Shown: positions 9,795-42,912 of the stretch, in pieces
Numbering within the stretch: position 1 is the first letter of the stretch
How the letters are laid out: each line of letters begins with the position of its first letter
Source: Haloarculaceae archaeon
Lineage (GTDB): Archaea; Halobacteriota; Halobacteria; Halobacteriales; Haloarculaceae
Length of the DNA: 42,912 nucleotides
Assembly (NCBI GenBank): GCA_042217765.1
Contig: JBDGSB010000084.1
Coordinates: 1 to 42,912, forward strand
Reading direction: 5' to 3'
Notes under the pieces: model-generated
What the model saw: only the letters and a program-made list of their open reading frames with translations
Database searches by the model: none
Told to the model about the DNA's origin: nothing
Made by a program: the position numbers and the translations under genes

Positions 9795-9817
9795 GTTTGT
9801 ATCCTCGTGTATCGTAA

Positions 9818-9827
9818 CTTAATTATT
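9818..9827 (-). promoter_or_regulatory. TATA-like box (AATAATTAAG on the minus strand) 24-33 nt upstream of the Snf7-like ATG. Implies a leaderless transcript.
   Basis: The only AT-rich stretch in an otherwise GC-rich intergenic region. Spacing is typical of haloarchaeal promoters. Confidence 0.4.
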
Positions 9828-14981: not shown

Positions 14982-14982
14982 C

Positions 14983-28150: not shown

Positions 28151-29034
28151 TCGGCCCTCCCGCCGGCTTCGGTCCGCGGATCGAGCACGTCACGCAGGCC
28201 GTCGCCGAGCAGGTTCATCGCCATGATGGTCGACACGAGCGCGACGCTGGGCCACAGCAGGTACCACGGCGACGAGTACATGTAGACCCGCGCCTGCGAG
28301 ATCATGAATCCCCAGTCGGGGTGGGGCGGCCCGGCACCGAGACCGAGAAACGACAGGCTCGTCCCGATGAGGATGGCGTAGCCGACCCGGATGGAACCCT
28401 CGACGACGATGGGCGCGGTCACGTTCGGCAGGATCTCCCGGAAGAGGATGTGCGGCGTCGACTCGCCGCGGGCCTTCGCCGAGAGAACGTACGGTTCCTC
28501 GCTCTCGGAGAGGGTGGCCGACCGCGTGACGCGGGCGATCCGCGGCGTGAACACGATGCCGACCGCCAGCACCACGTTCACGAGACTCGATCCGAGCGCG
28601 ACCACCAACAGGATGCCCAGCAACAGCACCGGAATGCTCATCATGATGTCCATCAGCCGCATCAGCAGTTCGTCGGCGCGTCCCTTGACGTAGCCCGTGA
28701 ACAGGCCGATGGGGACGCCGAACAGAAGCGAGACCCCGGCGGCTCCGAACCCGAGCAACAGCGACTTCTGGCCGCCGACGATGGTCCGGGACAGCAGGTC
28801 CCGTCCGAGGTTGTCCGTGCCGAGCGGGTACTTCCCGCCCAGCCCGGCGAATCGGGCGGCCGGATGGGTGGCCAGCGGATCGTGGGGTGCGATGGACTTG
28901 CCGAGCGCCGTCAGGACGATGACGGGAATCAGAATCACCAGCGCCGTGACGACCTTCGGGTTCGTCAGCAGTCGTTTGACTATCGGTGGAACGTCGATAC
29001 CTCCGACCGTCGCAGTGGATTCTTCAGCAGCCAT
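28147..29034 (-). CDS. ABC transporter permease (DppC/OppC-like)
   Basis: 295 aa, six TM helices, BPD-transporter EAA-like loop. Its start overlaps the stop of the upstream permease and its stop overlaps the ATPase start. Confidence 0.9.
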   Translation of the reverse strand: MAAEESTATVGGIDVPPIVKRLLTNPKVVTALVILIPVIVLTALGKSIAPHDPLATHPAARFAGLGGKYPLGTDNLGRDLLSRTIVGGQKSLLLGFGAAGVSLLFGVPIGLFTGYVKGRADELLMRLMDIMMSIPVLLLGILLVVALGSSLVNVVLAVGIVFTPRIARVTRSATLSESEEPYVLSAKARGESTPHILFREILPNVTAPIVVEGSIRVGYAILIGTSLSFLGLGAGPPHPDWGFMISQARVYMYSSPWYLLWPSVALVSTIMAMNLLGDGLRDVLDPRTEAGGRAE

Positions 29035-30017
29035 TATTTCTCACCCAGTTCGATGCGGGGGTCGAGAACTGTGTACAGAAGGTCGGCGACGAGGTTCGCG
29101 AGGATGAACGCCATCGTCGGGACCAGGATGGCGGCCTGTATCACGGGCAAGTCCCGGCTCGAAATCGCTCGGACGATGACCCGGCCGATGCCGGGATAGG
29201 AGAAAATCTCCTCGATGATGACGACCGAGCCCATCATCCAGCCGAAGTTGATCGCCAGGACCGTAATCGTGGGCAACAGCCCGTTGCGTAAGGCGTGTCT
29301 GGCCAGGACGTTCGATTCGGCGACGCCTTTCAAGCGGGCCGTCCGAATGAAGTCCGCTTCGAGCGTCTCGATCATGGACGATCTGGTCTGGCGTAACACG
29401 TACGCGAAGATGACGAAGTTGATCGATATCGCGGGCAAGATGAGGTGATAGAGCCACCCGATCGGGTTCTCGCTCAGTGGGACGTACCCGCCGTTGGGAA
29501 AGAGGTTCAACGGCGGCGTCGTAAGGAACAGCAGTAACAGCGTCGCGCTGACGAACGAGGGGATGCTGATGGCGACGTACGACAGATTCAGCGACACCGT
29601 ATCGAATATCGAATCCCGCTTGGCGGCCGTCAGCACGCCCAGCGGAATCGCGATGATGATCGAGATGATCGTCGCGACCAGGGCCAGTTCGAGCGTGCGG
29701 AAAAACGCCGGAACCACGAGCTTCGACACCGGCTGCCCGGAGATGAGGCTAGTGCCCCAGTCGAACGTGAACGTGTGCAGGACGAAATCGATGTACCGTT
29801 CGTACAGTGGCCGCGTGAGCCCCATCTGTTGTTCGAGCTGGTGCATCGCCTCCTCGGTTCGTTGTGTCCCGAGTACGATGGTCGCTGCTGACCCGGGAAT
29901 CGCCGCGGTCATCCCGAAGACGATGCTTGCGATGGCGATTACTGAGATAATCGACACGACGATCCGTTTGGCGAGGTACAGTGTGTTGACCACGTCCAAT
30001 CCTTTCCCTTCCGGCAC
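29034..30017 (-). CDS. ABC transporter permease (DppB/OppB-like)
   Basis: 327 aa, six TM helices, conserved permease core. Confidence 0.9.
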   Translation of the reverse strand: MPEGKGLDVVNTLYLAKRIVVSIISVIAIASIVFGMTAAIPGSAATIVLGTQRTEEAMHQLEQQMGLTRPLYERYIDFVLHTFTFDWGTSLISGQPVSKLVVPAFFRTLELALVATIISIIIAIPLGVLTAAKRDSIFDTVSLNLSYVAISIPSFVSATLLLLFLTTPPLNLFPNGGYVPLSENPIGWLYHLILPAISINFVIFAYVLRQTRSSMIETLEADFIRTARLKGVAESNVLARHALRNGLLPTITVLAINFGWMMGSVVIIEEIFSYPGIGRVIVRAISSRDLPVIQAAILVPTMAFILANLVADLLYTVLDPRIELGEK

Positions 30018-30233: not shown

Positions 30234-31415
30234 ATGAGTCTGGTAGAGCTTCCCGACCGCGCGGACGTCGCGATCGTCGGTGGCGGCATCATGGGGACGA
30301 GCGCCGCGTACTTCCTGGCGACCGAGACCGACCGCGACGTCTTGCTGGTCGAGCGCGACAAAATCGCCGGCGGATCGACGGGCGACTCCTCGGCAATCTT
30401 GCGCCATCACTACGGCGACCAGGAGATATACTCGAAGATGGCGCGGTGGGGCCACGAGTTCTATCGCGCCTTCGAGGAACACGCCGGCGGCGACATCGCC
30501 TACGGGCGCGCGCCGATGGTGAACTTCGCGACCGACGACGACGCCGAGTGGATACAGGCGGGCTACGACGTCCTGTCGTCGCTCGACATCCCCGTCAGCC
30601 GGTACGAGGCGGACGAACTCGACGCCGAGTACCCGATGATCGAGACCGATTCGTTCGACTTCGCGGTCAGCGACGACGACTCGGGCTACTCCGACGGCAC
30701 CGACGCGGCCGGCGGACTGGCCCGCGCCGCGCAGGAGGCGGGCGCGACCGTCGTGACGGGCGTGACCGTCGAGGACGTGCGCGTCGAGGGCGGGACCGTC
30801 GCCGGCGTCGAGACGGACGCTGGCTCCGTCGACGCCGACGAGGTCGTCCTGGCGGCCGGCCCGTGGACGACGCGGCTGCTCGACGGACTGGGCGTCGACG
30901 TCCCGCTGTCGACGAGTCGCGAACAGATTCTCATTCTCGACCCGCCCGCGGACTTTCCGGACGACCACCTCGAAGACCTGCCGACCAGCGGGGCCGGCGG
31001 CGGCTGGTACATGCGGCCCGACTTCGGCGGCGGCGTGTTGCTCGCGACACACCACACCGGCGAGACGGTCGATCCCGACCACTACGACGAGACGCCCGAT
31101 CAGGAGACGCTGCTCGACCTCCTAGAGAAACTGGAAGGGTTCGCCCCCGGCCTCGCCGACGCCAAGATCAAAGGCGAGTACTGCGGCGTTTACACGACGA
31201 CGCCGGACCACGACTTCGTCATCGACCAGGCCGGACCCGACGGCTGCTATCTCGCCTGTGGCTTCTCCGGCCACGGCTTCAAGCACGGACCGACCGTCGG
31301 CAGGATTCTCTGTGACCTCGTGACGACCGGTGACACCGACCTCGTCGACGTCGACTACTTCTCGGTCGACCGTTTCGAGGACGACCCTCAGGGCCACGGC
31401 GTGCCCGACCACTAG
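30234..31415 (+). CDS. FAD-dependent oxidoreductase, DAO family (sarcosine oxidase beta / opine oxidase-like)
   Basis: 393 aa starting at the internal ATG. N-terminal FAD fingerprint DVAIVGGGIMGTSAAYFLA. C-terminal …ACGFSGHGFKHGPTVGRIL. Confidence 0.8.
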   Translation: MSLVELPDRADVAIVGGGIMGTSAAYFLATETDRDVLLVERDKIAGGSTGDSSAILRHHYGDQEIYSKMARWGHEFYRAFEEHAGGDIAYGRAPMVNFATDDDAEWIQAGYDVLSSLDIPVSRYEADELDAEYPMIETDSFDFAVSDDDSGYSDGTDAAGGLARAAQEAGATVVTGVTVEDVRVEGGTVAGVETDAGSVDADEVVLAAGPWTTRLLDGLGVDVPLSTSREQILILDPPADFPDDHLEDLPTSGAGGGWYMRPDFGGGVLLATHHTGETVDPDHYDETPDQETLLDLLEKLEGFAPGLADAKIKGEYCGVYTTTPDHDFVIDQAGPDGCYLACGFSGHGFKHGPTVGRILCDLVTTGDTDLVDVDYFSVDRFEDDPQGHGVPDH

Positions 31416-31516: not shown

Positions 31517-33268
31517 TTATGGGTTCGGCCCCTTCGGCGCGTCGGGCGACAGGGCGGCGTCGTAGTTGAAGTCCTTGTTGGCGGCCGGACCGGGATCGAA
31601 GTGGCTGAGGTAGTCGTTGGACGCGGCCTGCTGGTCGAGGAAGCCGAAGATTATCCAGGCGTTGTCGAGGTGACTGATCCGCTGTGCCTTGGTGAACGCC
31701 TTCTGGAACGCCGGATCGCTAGTGGTCGTCGTACTGAACTTGTTGTACGCCTCGTGGTACTGCTCGTTGTCCCAGCGTCCGGAGTCCCACTTTGCGTCGG
31801 GCCCCAGCGCCAGCCGCGGAACGGTCGTCTGTTCCATCCGGGCCGCGTAGCCGCTGGCGTACCACTTCCCGTCCTGGTTCCAGTACTTCGACAGCCACGT
31901 GTCCGGGCTGACCAGTCGGATGTCGAACTCGATGCCGGCCTTTTTGGCCTGCTGCTGGAACAGTTTGACGCACGTACCACGGCGGGCCTGGAACTCGTTC
32001 TCGTAGATCGGGGTGGGCAGTTCGAGGCCGTCGCCGTAGCCCGCCTCTTCGAGCAACCCCTTGGCCTTCTCGGTCTGGGCGGTCGTGCCGAACTCGAGAC
32101 CCTCGTCGAAGTCCCCGTAGCCCGGATGAACCGGCGCGACGGGGTCGTGGTGGCCGATAGTCATGGTGCCGTCGGTCGCCGACACGATCTCCTCGCGGTC
32201 GAGCGCGTGCTTCATCGCCTGCCGAACTTTGAGCTTCGAGAACGGTTTGTCGCCGTTGTCGAGTTCCATGTTCGTCGTCATCACCATGCTCAGAAACGCC
32301 GAGGTCGAGTACTGGCGAACCGACGCGTTCCCGGCGTTTTCGATTCGGCTCCGGAGCGAGGGATCGAGCGTATTGATCACGTCCACGCGCTTGCCGGTGA
32401 GCGCGCTGGCCTGGGATACCGGGTCGGGGATGATCTTGGCCGTTATCTCGTCGAGATACGGCAGTTCCCGCCCCTCTCGCTCGATGTACCAGTCGTGTTT
32501 CTCGAAGTGGTACTGACTGTCCGATTCGTAGTCGGTCAGCGTGAACGGACCACTCCCGAAGTCCGTCGTGGAGAGTTCGTCGAAGCGGTTGTCGAGGATT
32601 TCCTTGGGGACGATGTTGAAGTAGCTCCCCGTTTCGCCGAGTCGCGCCGGGTAGAAGGGATCCTTTTTGGAGAGATTGATCGTGACCCGATGGTCGTCTT
32701 CGACGACCACAGGATTGTCCTTGTCGACTGCTCCGAGGTCGACCGAAGCACCGGGGACGCGGTCCTCCGAGAGCATGACTTCGACGGTCGCCTTGACGTC
32801 CTCGCCCAGCACCTTCTTGTCGATGTTCGCGAACTTGGCCTGGTCGGTCAGCATGAACGTCCACGCCGTCGTGTCGTCGTTGGGCTCCCAGTCCCTCGCG
32901 AGCCGCGGAACCGGTTCGTAGTCCCGGTTGTACCCGACCAGCCGGTCGTACATCAACTCGAAGAAGACGTAGTCTCCCTGACCGTCCCCGACGAACGGAC
33001 TGAGCGACTGTGGGGCGGCAATCGCCGTCGTCCGCAGGTGACCGCCCGGAATGATGTCCGGTCGTTCCGTCGTGGTTTCTTCGCCGCCACCGTTCCCTTG
33101 TGTTTCCTCCCCGCCGCCACCGCTGCTCTCTGTCGTGGTCTCTTCGCCGCCACCGCCCCCGCCGCCCATACAACCGGCGAGTGTGGCCGCACCGCCCGCC
33201 CCGAGCAACTTGAGGTAGGTTCGTCGGTCCGGTGATTCCTGACGCGTCAATGGGTCACTAGATCCCAT
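31517..33268 (-). CDS. ABC transporter substrate-binding protein, family 5 (OppA/DppA-like), Tat lipoprotein
   Basis: 583 aa starting at the ATG at 33268. Twin-arginine signal with a lipobox (DRRTYLKLLGAGGAATLAGC). Gly/Glu/Thr-rich linker. SBP-5 fold. Confidence 0.85.
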   Translation of the reverse strand: MGSSDPLTRQESPDRRTYLKLLGAGGAATLAGCMGGGGGGGEETTTESSGGGGEETQGNGGGEETTTERPDIIPGGHLRTTAIAAPQSLSPFVGDGQGDYVFFELMYDRLVGYNRDYEPVPRLARDWEPNDDTTAWTFMLTDQAKFANIDKKVLGEDVKATVEVMLSEDRVPGASVDLGAVDKDNPVVVEDDHRVTINLSKKDPFYPARLGETGSYFNIVPKEILDNRFDELSTTDFGSGPFTLTDYESDSQYHFEKHDWYIEREGRELPYLDEITAKIIPDPVSQASALTGKRVDVINTLDPSLRSRIENAGNASVRQYSTSAFLSMVMTTNMELDNGDKPFSKLKVRQAMKHALDREEIVSATDGTMTIGHHDPVAPVHPGYGDFDEGLEFGTTAQTEKAKGLLEEAGYGDGLELPTPIYENEFQARRGTCVKLFQQQAKKAGIEFDIRLVSPDTWLSKYWNQDGKWYASGYAARMEQTTVPRLALGPDAKWDSGRWDNEQYHEAYNKFSTTTTSDPAFQKAFTKAQRISHLDNAWIIFGFLDQQAASNDYLSHFDPGPAANKDFNYDAALSPDAPKGPNP

Positions 33269-33509: not shown

Positions 33510-34754
33510 ATGAGCGGGCGTTCGGCCGACTGGTGGACGACGACGGGCGTCGTGAGCGTCGGCCACATGCTCTCGCACGTGTACGCGCTCACCTTGCCGC
33601 CGTTGTTTCCGCTGATGCGCGACGACCTGGGGTTTTCGAGCACCGGGTTCGGGATCCTCGTGGCCATGTTCGCCGTCGCGGGGCTGTTGCAGATGCCTCT
33701 GGGAAGCCTCGTCGACCGCATCGGCGCGAAGAAGGTCCTCGTCGCCGGAACCACGGTGCTCGCTGTCGGGATGGCGCTCATCGGCCTCGCACCGTCCTAT
33801 TCGGTGATGCTGGTCGTGACGCTGTTGGCCGGCGTCGGCCTCGCGACCTTTCATCCAGCCGACTACGCCCTCCTGACGGCCGTCTCGGACGCCGACTCGG
33901 AGTCGCGGGCGTTCAGTCTCCACCTGTTCGCCGGCTACGTCGGCTTCGCGATCACACCGGTCGCCGTCGGCGGCTTCGCGCTGGCGACGTCTTGGCGGCT
34001 GGCGCTGCTCGCAGTGGGAGCGATCGGACTCGTCTTCGCCGCCGTCGAGGCGCTCGTCCTCGACGACGCCTACCTCGACGAACTCGAATCCGGCGACGAG
34101 GAGTCGGACGACGAGGAATCGGACGACGCCTCGTTCATCGACGACCTGCGACTGCTCGCTCGCCCGACGATATTCGGCATGTTCCTGTTCATGTTGGTGC
34201 TGACGATCGGCAACAAGGGGCTGTCGACGTTCACGCCCGTGTTGATGGTCGACGGGTTCGGCCTCTCGAAGACGCTGGGCAACACCGCGTTGACGGCCTA
34301 TTTCGCCGTCGGGGCGCTCGCCATCCTCGTCGGCGGCACCCTCGCGGACCGGTACGACCCGCGGCGGGTGCTCGTCGTCGCCGTGACGGTCATCGGGGCG
34401 CTAGTGTGGGCGCTCGTCGGCGGCCCCCTCTCGGTGACGCCGGCCGTCGCGATCGGCGCGTTCGGACTGATGGGACTGCTACAGGGGGCGGCCGTCCCCT
34501 CGCGGGATCGGCTCGTGAGCGACTTCACTCCGGACGGCGCGGCCGGCAAGAGCTTCGGGTTCGTGCTGACGGCGATTTCGGTCAGCGGCCTTCTCGCGCC
34601 GCCGATACTGGGTGCGGTCATCGACGCCTGGTCGGTCTTCGCCGCCTTCGAGATCATGAGCGGGTTCTTCCTCGTCGCCGCGCTCGTCGCGCTGGCGCTC
34701 GGGAGTCGAACCGTTCGCGCCAGCGGAGGCGTCGCCCAGGCCCAGGAAGAATAA
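33510..34754 (+). CDS. MFS transporter
   Basis: 414 aa, 12 TM helices, MFS loop motif. A central acidic loop (ESGDEESDDEESDD). Confidence 0.8.
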   Translation: MSGRSADWWTTTGVVSVGHMLSHVYALTLPPLFPLMRDDLGFSSTGFGILVAMFAVAGLLQMPLGSLVDRIGAKKVLVAGTTVLAVGMALIGLAPSYSVMLVVTLLAGVGLATFHPADYALLTAVSDADSESRAFSLHLFAGYVGFAITPVAVGGFALATSWRLALLAVGAIGLVFAAVEALVLDDAYLDELESGDEESDDEESDDASFIDDLRLLARPTIFGMFLFMLVLTIGNKGLSTFTPVLMVDGFGLSKTLGNTALTAYFAVGALAILVGGTLADRYDPRRVLVVAVTVIGALVWALVGGPLSVTPAVAIGAFGLMGLLQGAAVPSRDRLVSDFTPDGAAGKSFGFVLTAISVSGLLAPPILGAVIDAWSVFAAFEIMSGFFLVAALVALALGSRTVRASGGVAQAQEE

Positions 34755-34764
34755 GCGTGCTCGC

Positions 34765-36105
34765 TCACCGCCAGACGTCCACGAGGTCGGCCACGGGAGC
34801 GTCGGGCGTTTCGAGGAGGGTAACGACGTCGTCGTACGCGTCCGGGTCGGGGTGTTCGGCGTACAGTTTGTGCATCTTCGCCTCGAACTCCGCGTCGGAC
34901 AGCGGCCGTTCGGCCTCCCCGCGCGGGTGCGTGACCTCCTTCGCGTACGTCGCGTCGCCGGTGTGAATCTCGACTCGCGCCGAAAAGGCGTCGCCGTACT
35001 CCGCGACCAGGTCGGGGTCGTGGTGGAGGTCGATTCGCTCGGTCATCGCCAGGATCTCCGCGTCGGTCAGCGTGTCTCGTTGCAGGTCAGACGGCCGCAG
35101 GTCGCCTCTGATCAGTGCCACGGCCATCGGGAACGGGTAGGAGTACTCGGCCTCGTCGGCGTTTTCAGGTATCCGGGTCGTGAGGTAGGCACCCTGCTCG
35201 AACGTGTAGACGTCGACCGACCGTATCGAGTCGGGATCGATGTCGTGTTCGTCGTAGAGGTCCAGGACGGCGTCGATGCCGGCGTGGGTCCACCGACAGC
35301 CCGGATAGGGTTTGAAGTTCTGTGAATCGAACGAGAAGGTCTCTCCCAGGCTCTCGTGGGTCGTAATTTCCTCGTGGTCGAACAGCGTTCCGGACCCGTT
35401 CAGCCCCTTCTCCGCCAGCGACACGGAACTCGCGGCGACGAGCGCGCCCCACCCGATGCCGTCTTTGGTCAGGCCGTTGCCCGGGTTCGCCGCGCTCCGC
35501 ATGACCGGCGTGAGCGGCGCGTTGAAGTCGGCCATGCCGATCGCGTTCGCCAGCGTGTCGCGGTCGAAGCCGCGCAACTTCCCCGCGGCGGCGGCGCCTC
35601 CGACGGGGGCCCACGATCCGGTTCCGTTGTGGTACCCGACCAGCCGTCGCCGGGCGTCCCCGGTCCGGATGGCGACCTCGTACCCGGCCAGGGCCGCTTC
35701 GAGGAACTCCCCGACGCTCGCGTCCTCTTCTTCCGCGACGGCGAGCGCCACCGGCACGACCAGCGACGCGGCGTGCCCGTCGCCCCGCCGATTCCCGTCG
35801 TCGATGTCGAGCGCGTTCCCCGCGACGCAGTTCGCCAGCGCCGCGCCTTCGAGCCGACTCGTGTCCCCGCTGCCGTCGAGAATCGTCGCGTCACCCCCGG
35901 CGAAGGTCCCCGCGACGTACTCGGCGACCGCCGCCGTCTCGCGAATGGTGTGGCCCGCCGTGACCGCGCCCAGGGTGTCGAGGACGGTACGTCGAATGTC
36001 GTCCCGCACCGCATCGGAGAGCGATTCCAGTTCGAGGTCGTCGACGAACGACGCGACCCGCCGGGTGCCCGTGCCGAACTGCCAGGGAATAGCAGCACCT
36101 TCCAT
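34765..36105 (-). CDS. MmgE/PrpD-family protein (2-methylcitrate dehydratase family)
   Basis: 446 aa starting at the internal ATG (MEGAAIPW...). The family pattern spans the whole length. Confidence 0.8.
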   Translation of the reverse strand: MEGAAIPWQFGTGTRRVASFVDDLELESLSDAVRDDIRRTVLDTLGAVTAGHTIRETAAVAEYVAGTFAGGDATILDGSGDTSRLEGAALANCVAGNALDIDDGNRRGDGHAASLVVPVALAVAEEEDASVGEFLEAALAGYEVAIRTGDARRRLVGYHNGTGSWAPVGGAAAAGKLRGFDRDTLANAIGMADFNAPLTPVMRSAANPGNGLTKDGIGWGALVAASSVSLAEKGLNGSGTLFDHEEITTHESLGETFSFDSQNFKPYPGCRWTHAGIDAVLDLYDEHDIDPDSIRSVDVYTFEQGAYLTTRIPENADEAEYSYPFPMAVALIRGDLRPSDLQRDTLTDAEILAMTERIDLHHDPDLVAEYGDAFSARVEIHTGDATYAKEVTHPRGEAERPLSDAEFEAKMHKLYAEHPDPDAYDDVVTLLETPDAPVADLVDVWR

Positions 36106-36160: not shown

Positions 36161-37426
36161 ATGGCGCTCGGACCGACGCTCCCCGAAGAGACGGACATCC
36201 TGATCGTCGGCGGCGGAATCGTCGGCACCGCGACGGCGTTCTGGCTGTCGCGAAAGACCGACCGCGAGATGACGCTCGTCGACAAGGACAACGTCGCCGG
36301 CGGGGCGACCGGTGATTCCTCGGCCATCCTCCGGCACGTCTACGAGGACCGCCCGACGTACGCCGAGATGGCCTGGTGGAGTCACGAGTTCTACCGCGAC
36401 TTCGAGGACGAGACCGGCTACGAACTGTCGACGCCCGACCAGCCGCTGATCCAGTGGGGCGGTCCGGCCAGCGGCCACGAGGTGTCGCCGATGGTCGACT
36501 ACGAGACGCTACAGTCGCTCGACATCCCGGTGACGAGGTACGAGGCCGACGAGTTGCCCGCCCTGTTTCCGCTGTTCGAGTTCACCGACGGCTTCGAGTA
36601 CGCGGTCAGCGACGACGAAGCCGGCTACACCGAACCGGCGACCGCGGCCAACGGGTTCGCGAAGGCCGCCCAGGACAACGGCGCACGGGTCGTCACGGGC
36701 GTGGCCGTCGAATCGATCGACGCCGACGATGGGACGGTCGCCGGCGTCGAGACCGACGAGGGCTACATCGCCTGCGAGGACGTCGTCATCGCCGCGGGGT
36801 CGTGGTCGTACAAACTCGCCGCGACGGTCGACGTCGATCTCCCGATCACGCCCGAACGCGAACAGGCGCTCCTGCTCGACCCACCGGAGAACGTCTCCAA
36901 AGCGGAGCTCCGGTCGGTCCGCACGACCGGCCGCAGCAGCTCCAATCCGGACGGCGTCTGGTGGTACTTCCGGGCGGATTTCGGCGACACCATCTACATG
37001 GGAACCCACGCCCGCGCCGATTCCGTCGATCCCGACGACTACGACCGCACTCCCGACCAGAAACGCAAGGTCGAAGCCTTCGACATCCTCGACGAGTTCG
37101 CGCCGAAGCTCGCCGACTCGGAGATCGTCGGCGAGTTCTGCGGCGTCACCGCGAACACGCCCGACCAGGGATTCATCATCGACCAGGTCGGCCCCGACGG
37201 CCTGTACGCGCTGGTCGATGCCGGCCACGGATTCAAGCACGGCCCCGTCATCGGCCACCTCGGTGCCGACCTCGTCCTCGACGGCGAGAGCGACCTCTTC
37301 GACGTCGACCTGTTCACCGTCGACCGCTTCGACGATCGCTCGCCGAACCAGCCCCTCACCTACGACGACCCCGCCGAACTCCACCTGGCGACTGGCCGCA
37401 GCACGTCGTCCGACCACGGCGGGTAG
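36161..37426 (+). CDS. FAD-dependent oxidoreductase, DAO family (paralog of the 30234-31415 gene)
   Basis: 421 aa. DILIVGGGIVGTATAFWLS FAD motif. Colinear with the first DAO gene at ~45% identity (…AGHGFKHGPVIGHLGADLVL…). Confidence 0.8.
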   Translation: MALGPTLPEETDILIVGGGIVGTATAFWLSRKTDREMTLVDKDNVAGGATGDSSAILRHVYEDRPTYAEMAWWSHEFYRDFEDETGYELSTPDQPLIQWGGPASGHEVSPMVDYETLQSLDIPVTRYEADELPALFPLFEFTDGFEYAVSDDEAGYTEPATAANGFAKAAQDNGARVVTGVAVESIDADDGTVAGVETDEGYIACEDVVIAAGSWSYKLAATVDVDLPITPEREQALLLDPPENVSKAELRSVRTTGRSSSNPDGVWWYFRADFGDTIYMGTHARADSVDPDDYDRTPDQKRKVEAFDILDEFAPKLADSEIVGEFCGVTANTPDQGFIIDQVGPDGLYALVDAGHGFKHGPVIGHLGADLVLDGESDLFDVDLFTVDRFDDRSPNQPLTYDDPAELHLATGRSTSSDHGG

Positions 37427-37440
37427 AGCGGTTCCCCCAC

Positions 37441-37525
37441 CAGCACGTCGTTGGCCTACTCGGCCAGCACGTCGTTGGCCTACTCGGCCAGCACGTCGTT
37501 GGCCTACTCGGCCAGCACGTCGTTG
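37441..37525. repeat. 24-bp tandem repeat x3.5 (CAGCACGTCGTTGGCCTACTCGGC) duplicating the stop-codon region of the aminotransferase gene
   Basis: Each copy carries the terminal sense-strand GCCGAG TAG. The copies sit in the 3' UTR. Confidence 0.85.
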
Positions 37526-38586
37526 ATCGTCTCGACGGCGCGGCGGGTGCTCTCGGGAGTGCCACACGTGATGCGGATGCAGCCATCGGCGTTCCAGGGC
37601 GGGTCCGCACAGTCCCTGACGATGACGCCGCGTTCCTCGCAGGCCCGCGCGATCGCCGCGGAGTCGCCGACCTCGGCGAGCAGGAAGTTCGACGCGCTCT
37701 CCCAGGTCCGGGCGTCGAGTTCGTCGTGCATGTACGCCCGCGACCAGCGGACGAGTTCGACGCTCTCCCGGACGTGCTCGTCGTCGTCCAGAGCCGCCAG
37801 GCCGGCCCGGCAGGCGAGTTCACTGACCGCGAACGGCGAGTTGACGTGGTCGTAGGCGTCGGCCCACACGCCGGGCACCAGCGCGTACCCTACGCGAATG
37901 CCGGCCAGTCCGTAGACCTTCGAGAACGTCCGGAGGACGGCCACGTCGTCACGGTCGTCGAGCAGTGACCGGGCGCTGGGCGCGTCGGTGAACTCCCCGT
38001 AGGCCTCGTCAACGACCAGCAGGGTGTCGTCGTCGAGTCGCTCCCGCAGCGTCCGGATCTCGGCCATCGGCATCTCGCTGCCGGTCGGGTTGTGCGGCGT
38101 CGTCACGAAGACGAACCGCTCGCCGTCGTAGGCGTCCAGTACCCGATCGGCGGTCTGCGCCCAGTCGTCGTCCTTCCGGAGCGCGTACCGGCCGCCCACG
38201 GTTCCGTTGTGGTAGTGTGCGCCCTTCGGGTAGTAGGGGTAGCCGGGGTCGGGCGTCAGTATCTCCTCGCCGGGATCGAGTACGGCACGGTAGAGGTAAT
38301 CGAGCGCGCCGTTGGCACCGGGTCCGAGCCAGACCTGTTCCGGCGGGAGGTCCCACCGCCGCGCGAGGGCCTCGGTGAGGTCGGTGTGGGCCGTCGTCGG
38401 ATAGACGTTCGCGCGCGCGGCCGTCGTCCGCATGGCTTCGACGGCCTTCGGGCTCGGGCCGAGGGCGTTCTCGTTCGACGAGAGCTTCACGTAGTCGTCG
38501 GGCGACCCGCCGCGTTCGCGTGCGATCTCTTCCGGACCGCCGCCGGGCCGATAGACGCCGTGGTCCGAGAGGTCTCTCGGGTCCAT
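37504..38586 (-). CDS. class I/II PLP-dependent aminotransferase (HisC-like)
   Basis: 360 aa starting at the internal ATG. LSSNENALGPSP and the …TFSKVYGLAGIRVGY PLP-lysine region. Its start is 1 nt from the stop of the MttB-like gene. Confidence 0.8.
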   Translation of the reverse strand: MDPRDLSDHGVYRPGGGPEEIARERGGSPDDYVKLSSNENALGPSPKAVEAMRTTAARANVYPTTAHTDLTEALARRWDLPPEQVWLGPGANGALDYLYRAVLDPGEEILTPDPGYPYYPKGAHYHNGTVGGRYALRKDDDWAQTADRVLDAYDGERFVFVTTPHNPTGSEMPMAEIRTLRERLDDDTLLVVDEAYGEFTDAPSARSLLDDRDDVAVLRTFSKVYGLAGIRVGYALVPGVWADAYDHVNSPFAVSELACRAGLAALDDDEHVRESVELVRWSRAYMHDELDARTWESASNFLLAEVGDSAAIARACEERGVIVRDCADPPWNADGCIRITCGTPESTRRAVETINDVLAE

Positions 38587-38587
38587 C

Positions 38588-40036
38588 TCAATGCAGAATT
38601 TCCTCGCGTTTGTCTTCGACGTAGCGGTCGAGGTCGTTGCGGATGTCCTCGTCCATCGGCGGCCGTTCGTACTCCTCGACCAGCGTCTGCACCCGCTCGT
38701 GGGCACGCTCGAAGGCGGTCTTCGCGCCGTCGTTCTCCCAGTTGTCGTAGGAGTCGCGATAGGACAGTTCGGGAATCAGGAAGTTCTCCTGGGAGTATTC
38801 GAGCGTGTGGCGCTTGTTGAGGAAGTGGTCGGCGGGGTCGATCTCCTCGATGAGGTCGAGCGCGAAGGAGTCCTCGTCGAGGTCGAACCCGGCGGCGAAC
38901 CGCTGGAGGTACCGGATGCGGTCGCAATCGAGGACGAACTTCTCCGGCGAGGACGTCGAGTAGGAGTCCATGATGCCGACGCCGTGGGAGACGTAATCGA
39001 TGCCGCTGAAGAGGGTCACGAACAGCTGTAACATCGCCTCGGACCCGGCCTGATCGTCGACCGTCTTCGAGTCGTTGAGTCCGCCGCCGGCCCGCGAGGG
39101 GACGTCGTAGTAGCGGGCCATCTGGCCGGCCAGCGAGACGAACAGCGCGCCCTCGGGACTACCGATCGAGAACGAGCCGTACCGGATGTCGATGTTCGAG
39201 GTCGGCAGGCCGTAGACGATCGGCGTCCCGCGATTGACCGACTGTGCGATGACGTTGCCCGCCAGGATTTCGGCGTTGGCCAGGGCCATCGACCCCGCGA
39301 TTGCCGCCGGGCCGGACGCCGACGCCATCACGGCGGGCGCGAGGATGACCGGCTGTTCCATCCGGGCGTGCTGGAGGATACCGCCGGTCATCTTCGTGTC
39401 CCACGTGCGCGGCGAGACGCTGTTTGCGTTGCCGATGAGGTAGTAGTCGTCGAGATCGGGGTCGTCGTGCGCGATGCCGACCATCTCGGCCGCGCGTCGC
39501 GCGCGGTCCTCGCCGTAGCAGTTGCTGCCGGGTAGCTTGTCGGTCATCTGGAGGGTGCGGTTCTGGGTCTCCAGGTAGGCCACGCTCTCGTCGTAGTCGG
39601 TCGGGACGCACACTTCCGTGCCCGCAGTCGTGACGACGTCTTCCATCTGCGTTATCTTCTGAAATAACTCGAAGTCCTCCATGACCGAGGGCCGCCGGCC
39701 GCCGTCGTAGGTCAGCACGTTCGGCGGGCCGGCCGCCGTCGAGATGACGTGGCCGTCCGCCCCGAGCGTCTGGTCCGGCTGGGAGCCCCGACCGCGGACG
39801 GTGAACGTCGAAGGGGCCGCGTCGATACAGTCCTCGACCAGGTCGGGTGGGAACGTGACCACGTTGCTCTCTTCGTCGACCGTGCAGCCGTTTGCCGCGA
39901 GTAACTGCCGCGCGTCCTCGTGCCCGACGCGAATGCCCATCTCCTCGAGGATGGTGAGCGACTTCTCGTGCATGAGATCCTCTCCCTCGGGAGGCAACCT
40001 GTCGAGGTACGGGACGTCCAGTGTCTCTAAGCTCAT
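38588..40036 (-). CDS. MttB-superfamily (trimethylamine/quaternary-amine methyltransferase-like) protein, no pyrrolysine
   Basis: 482 aa. N-terminal …MHEKSLTILEEMGIRVGHEDARQLLAANGCTVDEESNVVTFPPDLVEDCIDAAPSTFTVRGRG matches the MttB family. The protein length matches a TIM barrel. Confidence 0.75.
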   Translation of the reverse strand: MSLETLDVPYLDRLPPEGEDLMHEKSLTILEEMGIRVGHEDARQLLAANGCTVDEESNVVTFPPDLVEDCIDAAPSTFTVRGRGSQPDQTLGADGHVISTAAGPPNVLTYDGGRRPSVMEDFELFQKITQMEDVVTTAGTEVCVPTDYDESVAYLETQNRTLQMTDKLPGSNCYGEDRARRAAEMVGIAHDDPDLDDYYLIGNANSVSPRTWDTKMTGGILQHARMEQPVILAPAVMASASGPAAIAGSMALANAEILAGNVIAQSVNRGTPIVYGLPTSNIDIRYGSFSIGSPEGALFVSLAGQMARYYDVPSRAGGGLNDSKTVDDQAGSEAMLQLFVTLFSGIDYVSHGVGIMDSYSTSSPEKFVLDCDRIRYLQRFAAGFDLDEDSFALDLIEEIDPADHFLNKRHTLEYSQENFLIPELSYRDSYDNWENDGAKTAFERAHERVQTLVEEYERPPMDEDIRNDLDRYVEDKREEILH

Positions 40037-40096: not shown

Positions 40097-40666
40097 TCAC
40101 TCGACCCGCCGACGGAGCAACTCGGTGAACGTCTCCTGAGACTGGTGTGCAACGCCCGCTAGCGCCGTCGCGTTCAGGTACACGGTGAAGTCCATCTTCG
40201 GAGCCGTCAGTTCGAGGCGATCGCCGTCGCCCGTTTCAACCTCGCTGACGACGACGTGGGCGAACTCGTTGGTGACTTCGACGAGGCGAGTCGTCGTCGG
40301 GTCTTCGGTCGTTCCGCCAGGCCCGTCGTCCGGGTCACTCGTCGCCACGACGTCGGCCGGATCACTCGTCGCCACGACGTCGGCTGGGTCGCCGTCGCGA
40401 GCGGTCGTATCGACGTCGTGCAGGAACGACCGGTAGGTGTCGCGGTCCTGCCAGGTCAGGCTTTCCAGCGCGACCGCGTCCAGCCGGACGCTCGCGTCCC
40501 GCTCGGTCGATTCAAGTTCGAGCCGAGTTCCCTTCGGCGTCTCGACCTCCCTGACGGCGATCGTCGCGTCGCGTCCCGACACCGTCGCGAGCGGTCGTAT
40601 CGACGTCTTCCCGGGGGGATCGGAACTCGCGTTGGTGTCGGTCGGCGCGTCGGTGTCGTCGGTCAT
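40097..40666 (-). CDS. hypothetical protein with an internal two-fold duplication
   Basis: 189 aa. Halves are related (IAVREVETPKGTRLELESTERDASVRLDAVALESL versus AHVVVSEVETGDGDRLELTAPKMDFTVYLNATALAGV). It contains an in-frame 27-bp tandem duplication (DPADVVATS x2). Its ATG overlaps the stop of the Rieske beta subunit. Confidence 0.55.
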   Translation of the reverse strand: MTDDTDAPTDTNASSDPPGKTSIRPLATVSGRDATIAVREVETPKGTRLELESTERDASVRLDAVALESLTWQDRDTYRSFLHDVDTTARDGDPADVVATSDPADVVATSDPDDGPGGTTEDPTTTRLVEVTNEFAHVVVSEVETGDGDRLELTAPKMDFTVYLNATALAGVAHQSQETFTELLRRRVE

Positions 40667-41172
40667 ACGAAAAACGAGAGGTTTCGGGTCCCGAGGACGG
40701 TCTGGTCGAGAAACACTGTTCGCGTCGCCAGTTCGAGTCCGTCGTCGGTCCTTCGCAGGGTATCCCGGCGCTCACAGGAGATGACGTCCTCCTCGGTCGT
40801 CTCGCCCTGGTTCCGGTACAGCAGGACGTTACTCCTGACGTCGATTTCGTCGCCATCGACCGACGCGACCCGGACGTTGGTGACGAAGTGCCGGAGACGC
40901 GACGGGGGGTTCTCCGCCCAGGCGTACTCCTTGTCGAAGCGTTTCACGCGCGTCTCCAGGGTGCCTCTGTCCTCGCGGTAGAGGTAGCTATCGTCGCTGA
41001 ACTCCGATTTCTCGGCCCCGCGCTCCCTGGTAACGCGGCGAGGGATTCGGTAGTCGACGTCGTCGGCCAGCAGGTCGAGCCACTCGTGGAGACGGCCGTC
41101 GTCGAGACACTCGGCTTCCCGGTACAGGAACTGCTCACACTCTAGACGGAGTTCGAGGTGCGATTCCGTCAT
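40663..41172 (-). CDS. ring-hydroxylating dioxygenase beta subunit (NTF2/SnoaL-like fold)
   Basis: 169 aa. …CEQFLYREAECLDDGRLHEWLDLLADDVDY… is typical of Rieske oxygenase small subunits. It lies 4 nt downstream of the alpha subunit. Confidence 0.75.
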   Translation of the reverse strand: MTESHLELRLECEQFLYREAECLDDGRLHEWLDLLADDVDYRIPRRVTRERGAEKSEFSDDSYLYREDRGTLETRVKRFDKEYAWAENPPSRLRHFVTNVRVASVDGDEIDVRSNVLLYRNQGETTEEDVISCERRDTLRRTDDGLELATRTVFLDQTVLGTRNLSFFV

Positions 41173-41176
41173 CGTC

Positions 41177-42532
41177 TCACCCGATCCGCTGGCCGGTCAT
41201 CGTCCGGTACCAGCTGTCGTAGAACGTTCGGAGCGTCCCGTCCTCGAAGTTCGTCTCGTAGACCGTTCCCGGGCCGGGCCAGCTATCGCCGAGTTCCTCG
41301 AAGTCGGCCATGTCGTCCATGCCCATCTGGTAGTTGCCCGTCGGCTCGTTGGTCTTCGCGAACGTGCTGCCAGCGGCCTCGGCGATGCCGTCCCAGACGG
41401 CGAAGTCGTCGACTTCGAAGTTCCCGGCGACGCTGAACGTGGAGATGCCGGCGTCGTAGGCCTGTTGTTTGAACTCCTCGGACGCGTTGCTGGGCACGAG
41501 CATCCAGTTCCAGACTTCCGTCCGGTCGGGGCCGAGAGGCCGCCACTTCCGGACGTTGAGGAAGCTCGCCAGGTCCCGATTGTCGGGATCCGGCGTAAAG
41601 GGAGCTTGCAGGAGCGAGCAGTTCGGGAAGATGGTTCCGACGAAGTCGATGAGTCCTTGTGCCAGTTCGTACTGGTCCCGCGATACGTGGTCGTCGGTGT
41701 AGGGAACCTCCGGGTAGCCGGGCGCGCGTTCGTCCTCGAAGTAGGCGACGAGCGCCGAGTGGCCGCTACAGTCGGTGACGTCTACCCCGGTCCGCTGGGA
41801 GCGCTCGCCCGACAGTTCGGGCGGGAACAGTTCCAGGTCCAGTACGGACTGGTGGGTCGCCGGCGTGTGGTAGGAGTCGCCCGTGAAGTTGTCCGCGCCG
41901 ATCTTCCAGTTCGTGTCGATCTCCCACCGTATCGGCTCGCCGACGACCTCGAGCCCCCCGTCGACGGCCTCGAACAGCAAGTCGAGGTACCACGTGAACT
42001 CGCCCAGGTACTCCGCCAGCGGCGGTGCCTCTTCCGACAGGGTCGCGAAGACCAGGCCGCCGTAGTCGTCGACCTGTGGCGCGGGTCGCAGGGAGTGCTC
42101 GCACGTATCGAGGTCCTGAAAACACTGGTTCTTTCGCGGGACGCCGACCAGTTCGCCCGTATTCTTGTACGTCCAGTTGTGGTACGGACACCGGAAGTGC
42201 GTCGTGTTGCCCTGTTCGGCACGAACGACGGTCGTCCCCCGATGGCGACACGAGTCGAACAGGACCCGGATTTCCCCGTTCTCGTCGCGGACGAAGATGA
42301 AGGGACTGTCGCCGACGTACCGTTTGGCGTAGTCGCCGGGTTCCGGAATCTCCGTCTCGTGGCCGACGAGAATCCACGACCGACCGAACACGCGTTCCAG
42401 TTCCAGGTCGTGTATCTCGCGGTCGTTGTGAATACGTTTCGGTAGCTTTCCCGTCTCGGTTATCTCGCCGGCCTGTTCGATGAGGTTTCGAACCCTCTCC
42501 GGCGGGTGTTGATCCGTGCCACCACTGCTCAT
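41177..42532 (-). CDS. Rieske [2Fe-2S] non-heme-iron oxygenase alpha subunit
   Basis: 451 aa from the ATG at 42532. The longer ORF to 42565 would include the TATA box. Rieske motif CRHRG-x17-CPYHNW. The C-terminal catalytic domain has His/Asp ligands. Confidence 0.85.
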   Translation of the reverse strand: MSSGGTDQHPPERVRNLIEQAGEITETGKLPKRIHNDREIHDLELERVFGRSWILVGHETEIPEPGDYAKRYVGDSPFIFVRDENGEIRVLFDSCRHRGTTVVRAEQGNTTHFRCPYHNWTYKNTGELVGVPRKNQCFQDLDTCEHSLRPAPQVDDYGGLVFATLSEEAPPLAEYLGEFTWYLDLLFEAVDGGLEVVGEPIRWEIDTNWKIGADNFTGDSYHTPATHQSVLDLELFPPELSGERSQRTGVDVTDCSGHSALVAYFEDERAPGYPEVPYTDDHVSRDQYELAQGLIDFVGTIFPNCSLLQAPFTPDPDNRDLASFLNVRKWRPLGPDRTEVWNWMLVPSNASEEFKQQAYDAGISTFSVAGNFEVDDFAVWDGIAEAAGSTFAKTNEPTGNYQMGMDDMADFEELGDSWPGPGTVYETNFEDGTLRTFYDSWYRTMTGQRIG

Positions 42533-42552
42533 GAGCCTATTTCCGGACACTC

Positions 42553-42562
42553 TCATATAAAT
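42553..42562 (-). promoter_or_regulatory. TATA-like box (ATTTATATGA) 21-30 nt upstream of the Rieske alpha ATG
   Basis: The only AT-rich patch upstream of the operon. Confidence 0.4.
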
Positions 42563-42615
42563 CATCGGTCAACCGTCGTGGTAGTGTTCAGATACGCAGA
42601 AGCGCTCACGAACAG

Positions 42616-42722: not shown

Positions 42723-42842
42723 CTGATCCAAACAGTGACTCTCGATCTCTTATCTGAACAGTGCTACCGTCGTGATCTCGCCGTCGCGAGGAACACACCG
42801 TCAGTGGTCCTCATCGTCGCGAGAAACGGGCCAGGAGTAAGG

Positions 42843-42912
42843 GGTACTCGACGCGGCCGACGACGGCGGTACAGGTACTCGACGACGGCGGTACAGGTAC
42901 TCGACGACGGCG
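42843..42912. repeat. 22-bp tandem repeat (GTACAGGTACTCGACGACGGCG) x3, continuing off the right edge
   Basis: ggtactcgacgcggccgacgacggcg / gtacaggtactcgacgacggcg / gtacaggtactcgacgacggcg. Confidence 0.8.

Follow-up and report, generated by a model that had tools for sequence, protein, structure and literature searches.

A predicted amino-acid betaine:corrinoid methyltransferase of the MttB superfamily in a conserved haloarchaeal island of N-methyl oxidase and Rieske oxygenase genes

In the 42,912-nucleotide stretch of haloarchaeal DNA analyzed here (hereafter the window), a gene on the minus strand at 38588..40036 encodes an MttB-family protein that is followed almost immediately by an aminotransferase gene, with no corrinoid protein gene in its vicinity. 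This arrangement raises the question of whether the protein belongs to an atypical MttB system that carries out a coupled demethylation-transamination step, as an initial annotation of this DNA had proposed, or is a methyltransferase of a familiar kind, and, if so, on which substrate it would act. To our knowledge, non-pyrrolysine MttB homologues number in the thousands, with few known substrates among them (glycine betaine, proline betaine, carnitine, γ-butyrobetaine and choline). As set out below, we lean toward a conventional corrinoid-dependent, non-pyrrolysine methyltransferase of this superfamily, the partners of which are encoded outside the window and the substrate of which is a bulky betaine.

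The open reading frame runs from an ATG start to a TGA stop and specifies 482 amino acids (MFB6184318.1) with no internal stop, in agreement with the initial annotation that the gene holds no amber codon. The MttB and aminotransferase proteins of the window are identical to MFB6184318.1 and MFB6184317.1, both recorded for a metagenome-assembled Haloarculaceae archaeon, which confirms the haloarchaeal origin of the DNA. The assignment to the MttB family is equally well founded: Pfam PF06253 (MTTB) matches residues 8–480 over profile positions 28–499 of 500, with 420.5 bits against a cutoff of 25 (E 7e-126). The equivalog model for pyrrolysine-containing MttB, TIGR02369, gives 306.3 bits against a cutoff of 525, and this score, together with the lack of an in-frame UAG, places the protein outside the pyrrolysine enzymes. 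Pyrrolysine MttB of methanogens (PDB 7XCL), the founding member of PF06253, likewise folds as a TIM barrel and methylates a corrinoid protein; it differs in needing an in-frame UAG-encoded pyrrolysine and in using trimethylamine as substrate, and it matches the window protein weakly (E 1e-45, residues 219–476). Among solved structures, the best match by sequence comparison is MtgB of D. hafniense (9yce_A/2qne_A), with 36% identity over residues 19–480 (E 4e-96), and 4yyc_A also matches (E 2e-69). The closest match among GTDB representatives is 68% identical. The product is accordingly predicted to be a quaternary-amine (amino-acid betaine):corrinoid methyltransferase.

When the window was searched for the partners of such an enzyme, none of the open reading frames scanned against Pfam contained a B12-binding, pterin-binding/MtrH, URO-D or RACo domain, and six-frame tblastn with haloarchaeal corrinoid protein, MtrH-like, RACo and DUF1638 queries returned nothing at E ≤ 1e-5. 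The statement that the window lacks a corrinoid protein or pterin-methyltransferase gene is thus correct, and the part of the 47,131-bp contig beyond the window amounts to no more than 4.2 kb. What does not follow is that the MttB system is atypical, as homologues 56–63% identical to the window protein lie 4–16 kb from canonical corrinoid genes. The fullest case is the locus of Halomicrococcus gelatinilyticus (L009; related loci are given by such labels where they need to be told apart), where a 63%-identical MttB homologue shares an island with a complete partner set 16–20 kb away, consisting of an MtrH-like protein (PF02007), DUF1638, RACo, and a corrinoid protein (PF02310 and PF02607). Corrinoid proteins are also encoded 4–9 kb from the MttB homologue in L008, L013 and L014, and a 27,639-bp contig is on record both for a further corrinoid protein (P0250) and for a 69%-identical MttB homologue (P0011). 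In the aerobic bacterium Ruegeria pomeroyi, moreover, the genes for MtgB, MtgC and MtgD are unlinked (PMC12478193). The lack of a corrinoid gene within 43 kb does not, therefore, imply a corrinoid-independent enzyme, and in genome mining of haloarchaea and marine roseobacters alike, the absence of such a gene within about 40 kb should not be taken as a sign of cofactor independence.

A candidate partner for the window protein is MFB6183410.1, a 243-residue corrinoid protein with the sequence DIHNIG at its DxHxxG motif, encoded on a 29,856-bp contig. Its accession number is 907 below that of the window MttB, and on accession proximity alone it probably comes from the same metagenome-assembled genome (MAG), although the submission batch contains many Haloarculaceae MAGs, which counts against this placing. 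Taking these observations together, we consider it very likely that the window enzyme is corrinoid dependent. The Ruegeria system is a known parallel in that it, too, combines a PF06253 enzyme of an aerobe with corrinoid and pterin modules at separate loci and with downstream FAD/tetrahydrofolate demethylations; it differs in being bacterial, in acting on glycine betaine, and in that the corrinoid and pterin modules also function together there as a split methionine synthase (PMC12478193). In the haloarchaea, by contrast, the pterin methyltransferase is MtrH-like, with only a short MetE-like gene nearby (L009), and the window protein is only about 32–33% identical to its roseobacter homologues.

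We next consider the binding site. The substrate-binding positions of MtgB, Y97-R312-H348-F356, read A-R-H-Y in the window protein, in an alignment that is gap-free around the Tyr97 position. The carboxylate-binding Arg312 and His348 (MtgB numbering) are kept here and in nearly the entire clade, while the aromatic pair formed by Tyr97 and Phe356, which in MtgB grips the trimethylammonium group of glycine betaine, is not retained, these positions being Ala and Tyr, with one cation–π aromatic persisting; the signature of the clade (≥57% identity) is A/G-R-H-Y, with rare exceptions. A similar divergence of quaternary-amine specificity among non-pyrrolysine MttB paralogues is found in Eubacterium limosum, where MtpB, MtcB and MtyB are the proline betaine, carnitine and γ-butyrobetaine methyltransferases and MthB acts on choline. 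These paralogues differ from the window system in coming from an anaerobic acetogen with dedicated, adjacent partner genes, and we know of none that serves a histidine-derived betaine or is tied to hut genes, FAD oxidases or an aminotransferase. They too keep Arg312 and not the aromatic pair (PMC13080624). The roles of these residues have been established in MtgB, where the Y97A substitution raises Km about 360-fold, R312L and H348E abolish activity, and F356Y is kinetically neutral (PMC13080624). MtgB (D. hafniense, PDB 2QNE/9YCE, and Methanolobus vulcani) thus resembles the window protein in superfamily, length, lack of pyrrolysine, Arg312/His348 and an aromatic residue at position 356. It differs in that the window protein has Ala in place of Tyr97, the MtgB residue in contact with the quaternary nitrogen of glycine betaine, in that mtgC and mtgA, adjacent in anaerobes, are absent from the window, and in that the window setting is one of O2-dependent oxidases and an oxygenase. 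We infer that the substrate of the window enzyme is likely an amino-acid betaine other than glycine betaine.

As to which betaine this might be, the neighborhoods of the related genes are informative. A urocanase gene lies within 10 kb of the MttB homologue in seven of the 13 distinct clade loci, in differing gene orders, and is accompanied either by HutH/HutI or by a second lyase with amidohydrolases. This second lyase is without the Ala-Ser-Gly triad that forms the MIO group, and its homologues adjoin the MttB homologue in L009, L012, L013 and L093; a missing MIO characterizes those trimethylammonia-lyases that act on histidine betaines (bioRxiv 10.1101/2025.08.13.670108; 10.64898/2026.04.22.720169). 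With seven of 13 loci beside Hut or lyase genes, a histidine-derived betaine (hercynine or ergothioneine) would be the most likely substrate class, a possibility that, judged from gene neighborhoods, we place somewhat short of an even chance. More tentatively still, and on balance doubtfully, the clade could represent the first cobalamin-dependent histidine-betaine N-demethylase, leading from the betaine through dimethyl- and monomethyl-histidine to histidine alongside the lyase route, with the product in the window subclade being taken by a neofunctional HisC paralogue and a Rieske module rather than by the Hut pathway.

The only catabolic entry routes for histidine betaines that we found in the literature searched are the trimethylammonia-lyases (HBTL of Shewanella woodyi and ergothionase), which belong to another enzyme family and eliminate trimethylamine where the present enzyme would transfer methyl groups stepwise, and none of which is encoded in the window. 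The same literature yielded no link between hercynine or histidine betaine and MttB, no description of haloarchaeal MttB systems, and no biochemical data on any haloarchaeal MttB homologue. We note that in four loci MttB adjoins a putative trimethylammonia-lyase, alongside which there would be no need to demethylate the same betaine, a point that counts against our reading. The haloarchaeal MIO-less lyases resemble histidine ammonia-lyases more than they do ergothionase 6S7J; the match to the latter (E 2e-29) is too distant for the lyase to discriminate between hercynine and ergothioneine, as the alignment extends to residue 337 and stops short of the diagnostic Lys384. An ornithine-cyclodeaminase-family gene present in two of the related loci, L006 and L010, could in addition hint at a proline-type betaine. 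A clade with one active-site change and a recurrent histidine-catabolism neighborhood constitutes a concrete hypothesis for a new specificity, and, if it is true, the methyl groups of hercynine or ergothioneine in hypersaline systems would be conserved as C1 units, with no release of trimethylamine.

The window MttB gene belongs to a conserved island that also encodes a Rieske α/β oxygenase, two FAD-dependent N-methyl oxidases and a transporter of ABC family 5, and we infer an aerobic host only from these neighboring O2-dependent enzymes (the Rieske oxygenase and the FAD oxidases). The first oxidase (DAO2, 36161..37426, plus strand; PF01266, E 4e-56) is of the MTOX/sarcosine-type N-methyl-amino-acid oxidase-like kind, its gene is convergent with that of the aminotransferase, and orthologues with 63–81% identity flank the MttB gene in L001, L090, L006, L010 and L093; it is a candidate for a later N-demethylation step. 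The second (DAO1, 30234..31415, plus strand; PF01266, E 2e-69) is 68% identical to the H. gelatinilyticus oxidase encoded beside the corrinoid protein, and has copies of 62–65% identity in L093 and L006. Between them lie genes for a family-5 ABC substrate-binding protein with a Tat/lipobox-like N-terminus (31517..33268, minus strand; PF00496, E 3e-56), orthologues of which (39–66% identity) adjoin MttB homologues in L006, L004, L010, L093, L009, L012 and L008, for an MFS transporter (33510..34754, plus strand; PF07690, E 2e-50), and for an MmgE/PrpD-family protein (34765..36105, minus strand; PF03972 and PF19305) the start of which is uncertain (36105, 36141 or 36162) and which has no counterpart found in the related loci. 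Two permeases (29034–30017 and 28147–29034, both minus strand; PF00528) and a fused double ATPase (26075–28150, minus strand; PF00005 and oligo_HPY) belong to one transporter (26075..30017), and the same set is found in L009 and L093. A metagenome scan with the clade alignment returned five loci, which added no further context.

In the mechanism that we propose, the MttB protein would bind a trimethylammonium compound that bears a carboxylate and is bulkier than glycine betaine, and would hand one methyl group to Co(I) of a corrinoid protein encoded elsewhere, from which an MtrH-like enzyme would transfer it to tetrahydrofolate, with oxidized cofactor being repaired by a RACo-type activase, both as arranged in the Halomicrococcus island. 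The two remaining methyl groups would then be removed by FAD enzymes, that is, by DAO2 and DAO1 in the window and by dimethylglycine-dehydrogenase-like proteins in relatives, and only after full demethylation would the free amino acid be used, through the Hut pathway in most relatives and by a HisC-derived aminotransferase in the window subclade. Removal of one methyl group from a trimethylammonium compound leaves a tertiary amine, while a PLP-dependent aminotransferase requires a primary amine, and the single demethylation-transamination step suggested in the initial annotation is thus chemically untenable. With two FAD N-methyl oxidase genes at hand that could supply the missing demethylations, and with a gap between the MttB and aminotransferase genes that is particular to the window (see below), any coupling would be at the level of the pathway and not of one reaction.

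The aminotransferase gene itself (37504..38586, minus strand) encodes a 360-residue HisC-family PLP enzyme, MFB6184317.1 (PF00155, E 9e-65; TIGR01141). The junction reads ...CTG CAT TGA G ATG GAC..., so that the MttB stop is separated from the aminotransferase ATG by exactly 1 nt, as initially described. In L001 and L090, the loci closest to the window, the MttB gene is likewise followed by a copy with 81–82% identity, and in all three of these loci (including the window) the aminotransferase gene lies between the MttB and DAO2 genes. The linkage of the two genes thus recurs; the 1-nt spacing, however, is peculiar to the window, L001 having a gap of 55 nt and L090 one of 50 nt.

One could argue that this aminotransferase is simply the housekeeping hisC gene, and that its position after the MttB gene is functionally meaningless. 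The protein exceeds the TIGR01141 hisC equivalog cutoff (305.1 against 276.55 bits), is 60–64% identical to canonical haloarchaeal HisC of many genera, and keeps all of K214, D184, Y187, R322 and R335 (E. coli numbering), which we take to have the same roles as in E. coli HisC, among them the PLP lysine and the phosphate- and carboxylate-binding arginines. Furthermore, no second HisC with an accession near MFB6184317 was present among the ten HisC matches checked, and the three loci with this gene order are near relatives, with 80–83% identity between their MttB proteins. Against this, 15 residues that are at least 93% invariant among 113 canonical haloarchaeal HisC proteins are substituted in the subclade to which the protein belongs, among them the equivalent of E. 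coli Asp85 and several clustered at E. coli 326–330. The subclade comprises only six sequences compared with hundreds of canonical HisC. The gene is also placed exactly between MttB and DAO2 genes that are directly adjacent, with no aminotransferase between them, in L006, L010 and L093. A housekeeping role is therefore somewhat unlikely, and the protein is, from its sequence, a diverged, paralogue-like member of the HisC family. An apparent parallel in the Halomicrococcus island, a gene annotated as "aminotransferase class I/II", was set aside, as it actually encodes a PF01053 Cys/Met-metabolism PLP enzyme and has no tblastn match in the window.

A different bulky betaine could also be the substrate of the window subclade, namely an aromatic one (of Phe, Tyr or Trp) or proline betaine, with the HisC-like protein serving to transaminate aromatic amino acids and the ring being attacked by the HcaE/F-like Rieske dioxygenase. 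No hut genes are in view in the window, L001 or L090, and their substrate may thus differ from that of the Hut-linked relatives. The Rieske subunits most resemble those of 3-phenylpropionate dioxygenase. The α subunit, a non-heme-iron oxygenase component of up to 462 residues with an uncertain start codon (41177..42565, minus strand; PF00355 and PF00848), is encoded by the first gene of a five-gene same-strand run and scores under the cutoff of every equivalog model; its counterparts are a 90%-identical fragment in L001 and one with 80% identity in L005. The 169-residue β subunit (40663..41172, minus strand; PF00866, E 3e-40) scores 179 with NF007479, which has a cutoff of 145, and its copies are 84% identical in L001 and 59% in L093. 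The gene for an acidic, cysteine-free 189-residue protein with an internal duplication and no Pfam or NCBIfam match (40097..40666, minus strand) shares 4 nt with the β-subunit gene and is separated from the downstream MttB start by 60 nt, and its homologues always follow the β-subunit gene (56% identity in L001, 36% in L093). An aromatic substrate would also be in line with the best NCBIfam match of DAO2, which is to N-methyl-L-tryptophan oxidase (142 bits, under the cutoff of 257), with a TPP-dependent enzyme in L001 and L090 that could decarboxylate an arylpyruvate, and with one PDB relative of the aminotransferase that is annotated as a phenylalanine aminotransferase. The Rieske α/β/small-protein module, however, is also present in the Hut-type loci L093 and L005, the TPP enzyme occurs in the Hut-linked L004 and L010 as well, and the window MttB shares both 76% identity and the A-R-H-Y signature with its homologue in the Hut-linked L006. 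We thus consider an aromatic or proline betaine unlikely.

An ordinary glycine betaine methyltransferase, that is, an MtgB orthologue in a nitrogen-compound catabolic region where its hut, aminotransferase and Rieske neighbors are unrelated to it, would account for MtgB being the best solved-structure match, for the retention of R312 and H348 and the harmless F356Y exchange, and for the DAO and dimethylglycine-dehydrogenase-like neighbors, which fit glycine betaine catabolism. It is difficult to reconcile with the replacement of Tyr97 by Ala or Gly almost throughout the clade, given the Km penalty of Y97A in MtgB, and with the recurrence of urocanase in the clade loci. In addition, distant haloarchaeal paralogues are mostly Y-R-H-Y, one of them adjoining a BCCT betaine transporter gene in L003, and such paralogues coexist with clade members within the same genome, as in H-GB1-1 (P0049 and P0081 beside P0034 and P0035). 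This makes an MtgB orthologue very unlikely.

Finally, that the enzyme is corrinoid independent or uses a non-canonical acceptor, forming one coupled demethylation-transamination unit with the aminotransferase, is barely credible: the 43 kb without partner genes, the 1-nt junction, and the aminotransferase position kept in L001 and L090 would fit it, but it is opposed by the tertiary amine product, the canonical corrinoid genes near the homologues (with a complete set in L009), the probable same-MAG corrinoid protein, the L006 homologue that has no aminotransferase, the 50–55 nt gaps in L001 and L090, and the unlinked partners already known in aerobes (PMC12478193). At the other end of the aminotransferase gene, we observed a perfect tandem repeat of 3.6 copies of a 24-nt unit (37440..37525; TRF score 172, 100% matches), in which the final seven codons of that gene, together with its stop codon, are reiterated beyond the true stop.

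The MttB-superfamily gene at 38588–40036 (−) runs from ATG to TGA without an internal stop, and hence without an amber codon, and encodes 482 aa that the PF06253 (MTTB) profile covers end to end (E 7e-126), confirming the family membership given in the initial annotation. Its score of 306 bits against the pyrrolysine-MttB equivalog TIGR02369 lies below the cutoff of 525, and its closest solved relatives are structures 9YCE and 2QNE (E 4e-96, residues 19–480), both of the glycine betaine methyltransferase MtgB of Desulfitobacterium hafniense. The gene is the fourth of five in a same-strand run, which opens with a Rieske oxygenase alpha gene (41177–42565, −), separated by 4 nt from the beta gene (40663–41172, −); this in turn overlaps by 4 nt the gene for an acidic protein of 189 aa that matches no family (40097–40666, −), after which a 60-nt gap leads to MttB. 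A single nucleotide (junction ...CAT TGA G ATG...) then separates the MttB stop from the start of a HisC-family aminotransferase (37504–38586, −; 360 aa; TIGR01141 score 305, above the cutoff of 276.55). Convergent with the aminotransferase lies DAO2 (36161–37426, +), an oxidase resembling N-methyl-amino-acid oxidases, and we assign to the same region an MmgE/PrpD protein and MFS transporter, a family-5 ABC substrate-binding protein, a second DAO-family oxidase (DAO1, 30234–31415, +), and ABC permeases with their ATPase, all further along the window. The aminotransferase and MttB proteins are identical to MFB6184317.1 and MFB6184318.1, respectively, from an NCBI Haloarculaceae archaeon MAG (47,131-bp contig).

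No corrinoid or pterin methyltransferase gene was found in the window: the scanned ORFs, which were picked by length and codon-position GC content, contain no B12-binding, MtrH/pterin, URO-D or RACo domains (Pfam), and a tblastn search of all six window frames, using haloarchaeal queries for the corrinoid protein, the MtrH-like protein, RACo and DUF1638, returned nothing at E ≤ 1e-5. The initial observation itself (the gene, its junction, and this absence from the window) is thus correct in every particular. The corrinoid independence read from it is not supported, in light of relatives with conventional partner genes, a candidate partner (MFB6183410.1), and unlinked loci in Ruegeria. On a 359-kb plasmid of Halomicrococcus gelatinilyticus GSLN9 (locus L009), a 63%-identical MttB homologue lies 16–20 kb from genes for an MtrH-family methyltransferase (PF02007), a DUF1638 protein, a RACo-type activase (Fer2 and RACo domains) and a corrinoid protein (PF02607 and PF02310), and since the intervening genes are of FAD demethylase and histidine-catabolism type, we consider the whole to be one island. 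Corrinoid proteins also lie 4–9 kb from the homologue in strain H-GB1-1 (L008), QS_1_68_17 (L013) and Halodesulfurarchaeum (L014), and more than 100 haloarchaeal corrinoid proteins of this type were found. The contigs recorded for a 69%-identical MttB homologue (P0011) and for a corrinoid protein (P0250) have exactly the same length (27,639 bp), from which we infer that P0250 lies in the 5.9 kb beyond the Rieske alpha gene of the P0011 island.

The candidate partner MFB6183410.1 (“Haloarculaceae archaeon”, 243 aa) carries a DIHNIG (DxHxxG) motif, and its accession is 907 below that of the window MttB. As accessions are consecutive along the window contig, and a typical haloarchaeal MAG has an estimated few thousand proteins, it probably derives from the same MAG, although with many Haloarculaceae MAGs in the submission batch this falls short of proof. 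Such an unlinked arrangement is already established in an aerobe, since in Ruegeria pomeroyi separate loci encode the PF06253 proteins (SPO2108 and SPO2134), SPO2160 (corrinoid protein) and SPO1863 (pterin methyltransferase), and genetics shows that SPO2160 and SPO1863 are needed for the use of glycine betaine (PMC12478193). The window MttB is a non-pyrrolysine MttB-family enzyme that most likely has its corrinoid partners encoded elsewhere, as in other aerobes, and is ordinary in mechanism. We note that a 343-aa MetE-like “methionine synthase” (Meth_synt_2) adjoins the MttB/ABC-transporter island of L009 (40327–41358; NZ_CP100467.1 345326–346357), a short gene that recalls the tie of betaine demethylation to methionine synthesis in Ruegeria (PMC12478193).

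MtgB binds glycine betaine through cation–π contacts with Tyr97 and Phe356 and carboxylate contacts with Arg312 and His348; Y97A raises Km ∼360-fold, F356Y is neutral, and R312L and H348E abolish activity (Picking et al., PMC13080624). Transferring these positions through an ungapped alignment stretch gives Ala-Arg-His-Tyr in the window MttB. Nearly all homologues with at least 57% identity are likewise Ala/Gly-Arg-His-Tyr, and haloarchaeal paralogues below ∼56% are mostly Tyr-Arg-His-Tyr, as in MtgB, with one of these adjoining a BCCT betaine transporter (L003). The two groups fall apart in a neighbor-joining tree, and both occur in single genomes, such as H-GB1-1 (P0034 and P0035 of the Ala/Gly type, P0049 and P0081 of the Tyr type). 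Compared with MtgB, the window MttB therefore keeps the carboxylate site but lacks the bulky aromatic at the Tyr97 position, which points to a substrate betaine that bears a carboxylate and is larger than glycine betaine. Locus L090 (885–4065) has a tandem pair of MttB paralogues upstream of the aminotransferase, with 80% and 81% identity to the window MttB, and one of the pair has Gln at the His348 position.

Neighborhood comparison of 13 distinct clade loci revealed a recurrent core of MttB, the MTOX-like DAO2 (usually divergent and adjacent), a DMGDH-like enzyme, a family-5 ABC transporter and, often, a TPP-dependent enzyme, with urocanase within 10 kb in seven loci. The loci sort into three types. 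In type A loci (L093, L009, L013 and L012, with MttB 69, 63, 62 and 61% identical to that of the window), the neighbors of the MttB gene include two amidohydrolases, a urocanase-like protein and a homologue of histidine ammonia-lyase (L009 25333–32667; L093 3428–9826; also L012 and L013), with a Cys/Met-type PLP enzyme (PF01053) in L009, L012 and L013. Type B loci (L006, 76%; L004/L005, 70%; L010, 68%) carry hutH, hutI, hutU and an HTH_10 regulator directly upstream of the MttB gene; their hutH has the MIO-forming GASGDL motif in L006 and L004/L005, and is cut off in L010. Type C comprises the window, L001 (83%) and L090 (80–81%), with the HisC-like aminotransferase between MttB and DAO2 and no hut genes in view, and is nested within Hut-linked lineages in the neighbor-joining tree. 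The Hut-type islands L093 and L005 share the window's module of Rieske alpha, Rieske beta and small protein, which thus belongs to the island rather than being special to the window.

In the type A lyase homologue, a three-residue deletion takes out the Ala-Ser-Gly triad, the loss of which marks trimethylammonia-lyases acting on ergothioneine, histidine betaine and N(π)-methyl histidine betaine (bioRxiv 10.1101/2025.08.13.670108; 10.64898/2026.04.22.720169). The type A gene set looks like a trimethylammonia-lyase pathway for ergothioneine or hercynine, of a kind that the literature searched does not describe in archaea. These loci pair a putative trimethylamine-eliminating lyase with an MttB demethylase homologue; such a lyase would make demethylation of the same betaine redundant. 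By guilt by association, the most economical reading is that the islands form a family for histidine-derived betaines. Among these, ergothioneine is faintly favored by the same kind of association, because of sulfur-relay genes in L001 and L090 (DsrE next to the DMGDH-like gene, 11060–11422 and 10895–11257, respectively) and in L009 (TusA and DsrE, 6313–6968); neither DsrE nor TusA was found in the window. In the literature consulted, the substrates of characterized non-pyrrolysine MttB members are glycine betaine, proline betaine, carnitine and γ-butyrobetaine; MthB acts on choline. In the literature searched, no paper links hercynine or histidine betaine to MttB, or describes any haloarchaeal MttB system. 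The clade, which combines an altered substrate pocket with a recurrent link to histidine-betaine catabolism, is worth pursuing.

The initial annotation had also proposed a coupled demethylation–transamination step. MttB-type enzymes take one methyl off a trimethylammonium group, leaving a tertiary amine, which is unable to form the external aldimine needed by a PLP aminotransferase, and a one-step process is therefore not tenable. Two further demethylations are needed before transamination; two FAD oxidases of the DAO family are encoded in the window, and in relatives there are, in addition, one or two proteins resembling dimethylglycine dehydrogenase (DAO and GCV_T domains). What merits pursuit instead is the conserved, pathway-level link of MttB to a diverged, probable HisC paralogue in type C loci.

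That the aminotransferase is simply the housekeeping hisC of the organism appears unlikely. It is 60–64% identical to canonical HisC of many haloarchaeal genera and retains the catalytic lysine as well as the two arginines for the substrate anion, and only five other sequences reach 72–82% identity to it. This six-member subclade has changed at 15 positions, each at least 93% invariant among 113 canonical HisC sequences, including Asn at the E. coli Asp85 position, Met to Lys at the Val115 position, and a cluster at 326–330, between the two arginines. These substitutions fit a recruited HisC paralogue with altered specificity, and an enzyme of this aminotransferase family would naturally accept histidine or an aromatic amino acid. 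A canonical hisC accompanying it in the MAG was not found, none of ten HisC hits checked having an accession near MFB6184317.1. The gene end carries a perfect 24-nt × 3.6 tandem repeat (37440–37525), whose unit corresponds to the last seven codons plus stop (minus strand: AAC GAC GTG CTG GCC GAG TAG GCC), with three extra copies beyond the genuine stop codon, where the two convergent genes leave a gap ahead of the DAO2 stop (37426); this could reflect replication slippage or an assembly artefact.

Further repeats lie 5′ of the Rieske alpha gene (42766–42827, 33 nt × 1.9; 42858–42912, perfect 22 nt × 2.5, running off the window end). The acidic 189-aa protein is cysteine-free and internally duplicated (V.EVET..G.RLEL motifs), and a 27-nt × 2.8 repeat in its gene (40324–40398) encodes DPADVVATS units; as this gene comes after that for Rieske beta not only in the window but also in L001 and L093, its product may be an accessory protein of the oxygenase. 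Elsewhere, the GC content of positions 1–2000 is 56.5%, compared to 63–69% in the rest of the window, and the ORFs tested at 9800–12900, including one of 911 aa, gave zero Pfam matches. Finally, at 14565–16730, a PhaC-like α/β hydrolase comes after a 138-aa short-chain dehydrogenase fragment, which matches only the C-terminal half of its profile, perhaps owing to truncation or to a miscalled start.
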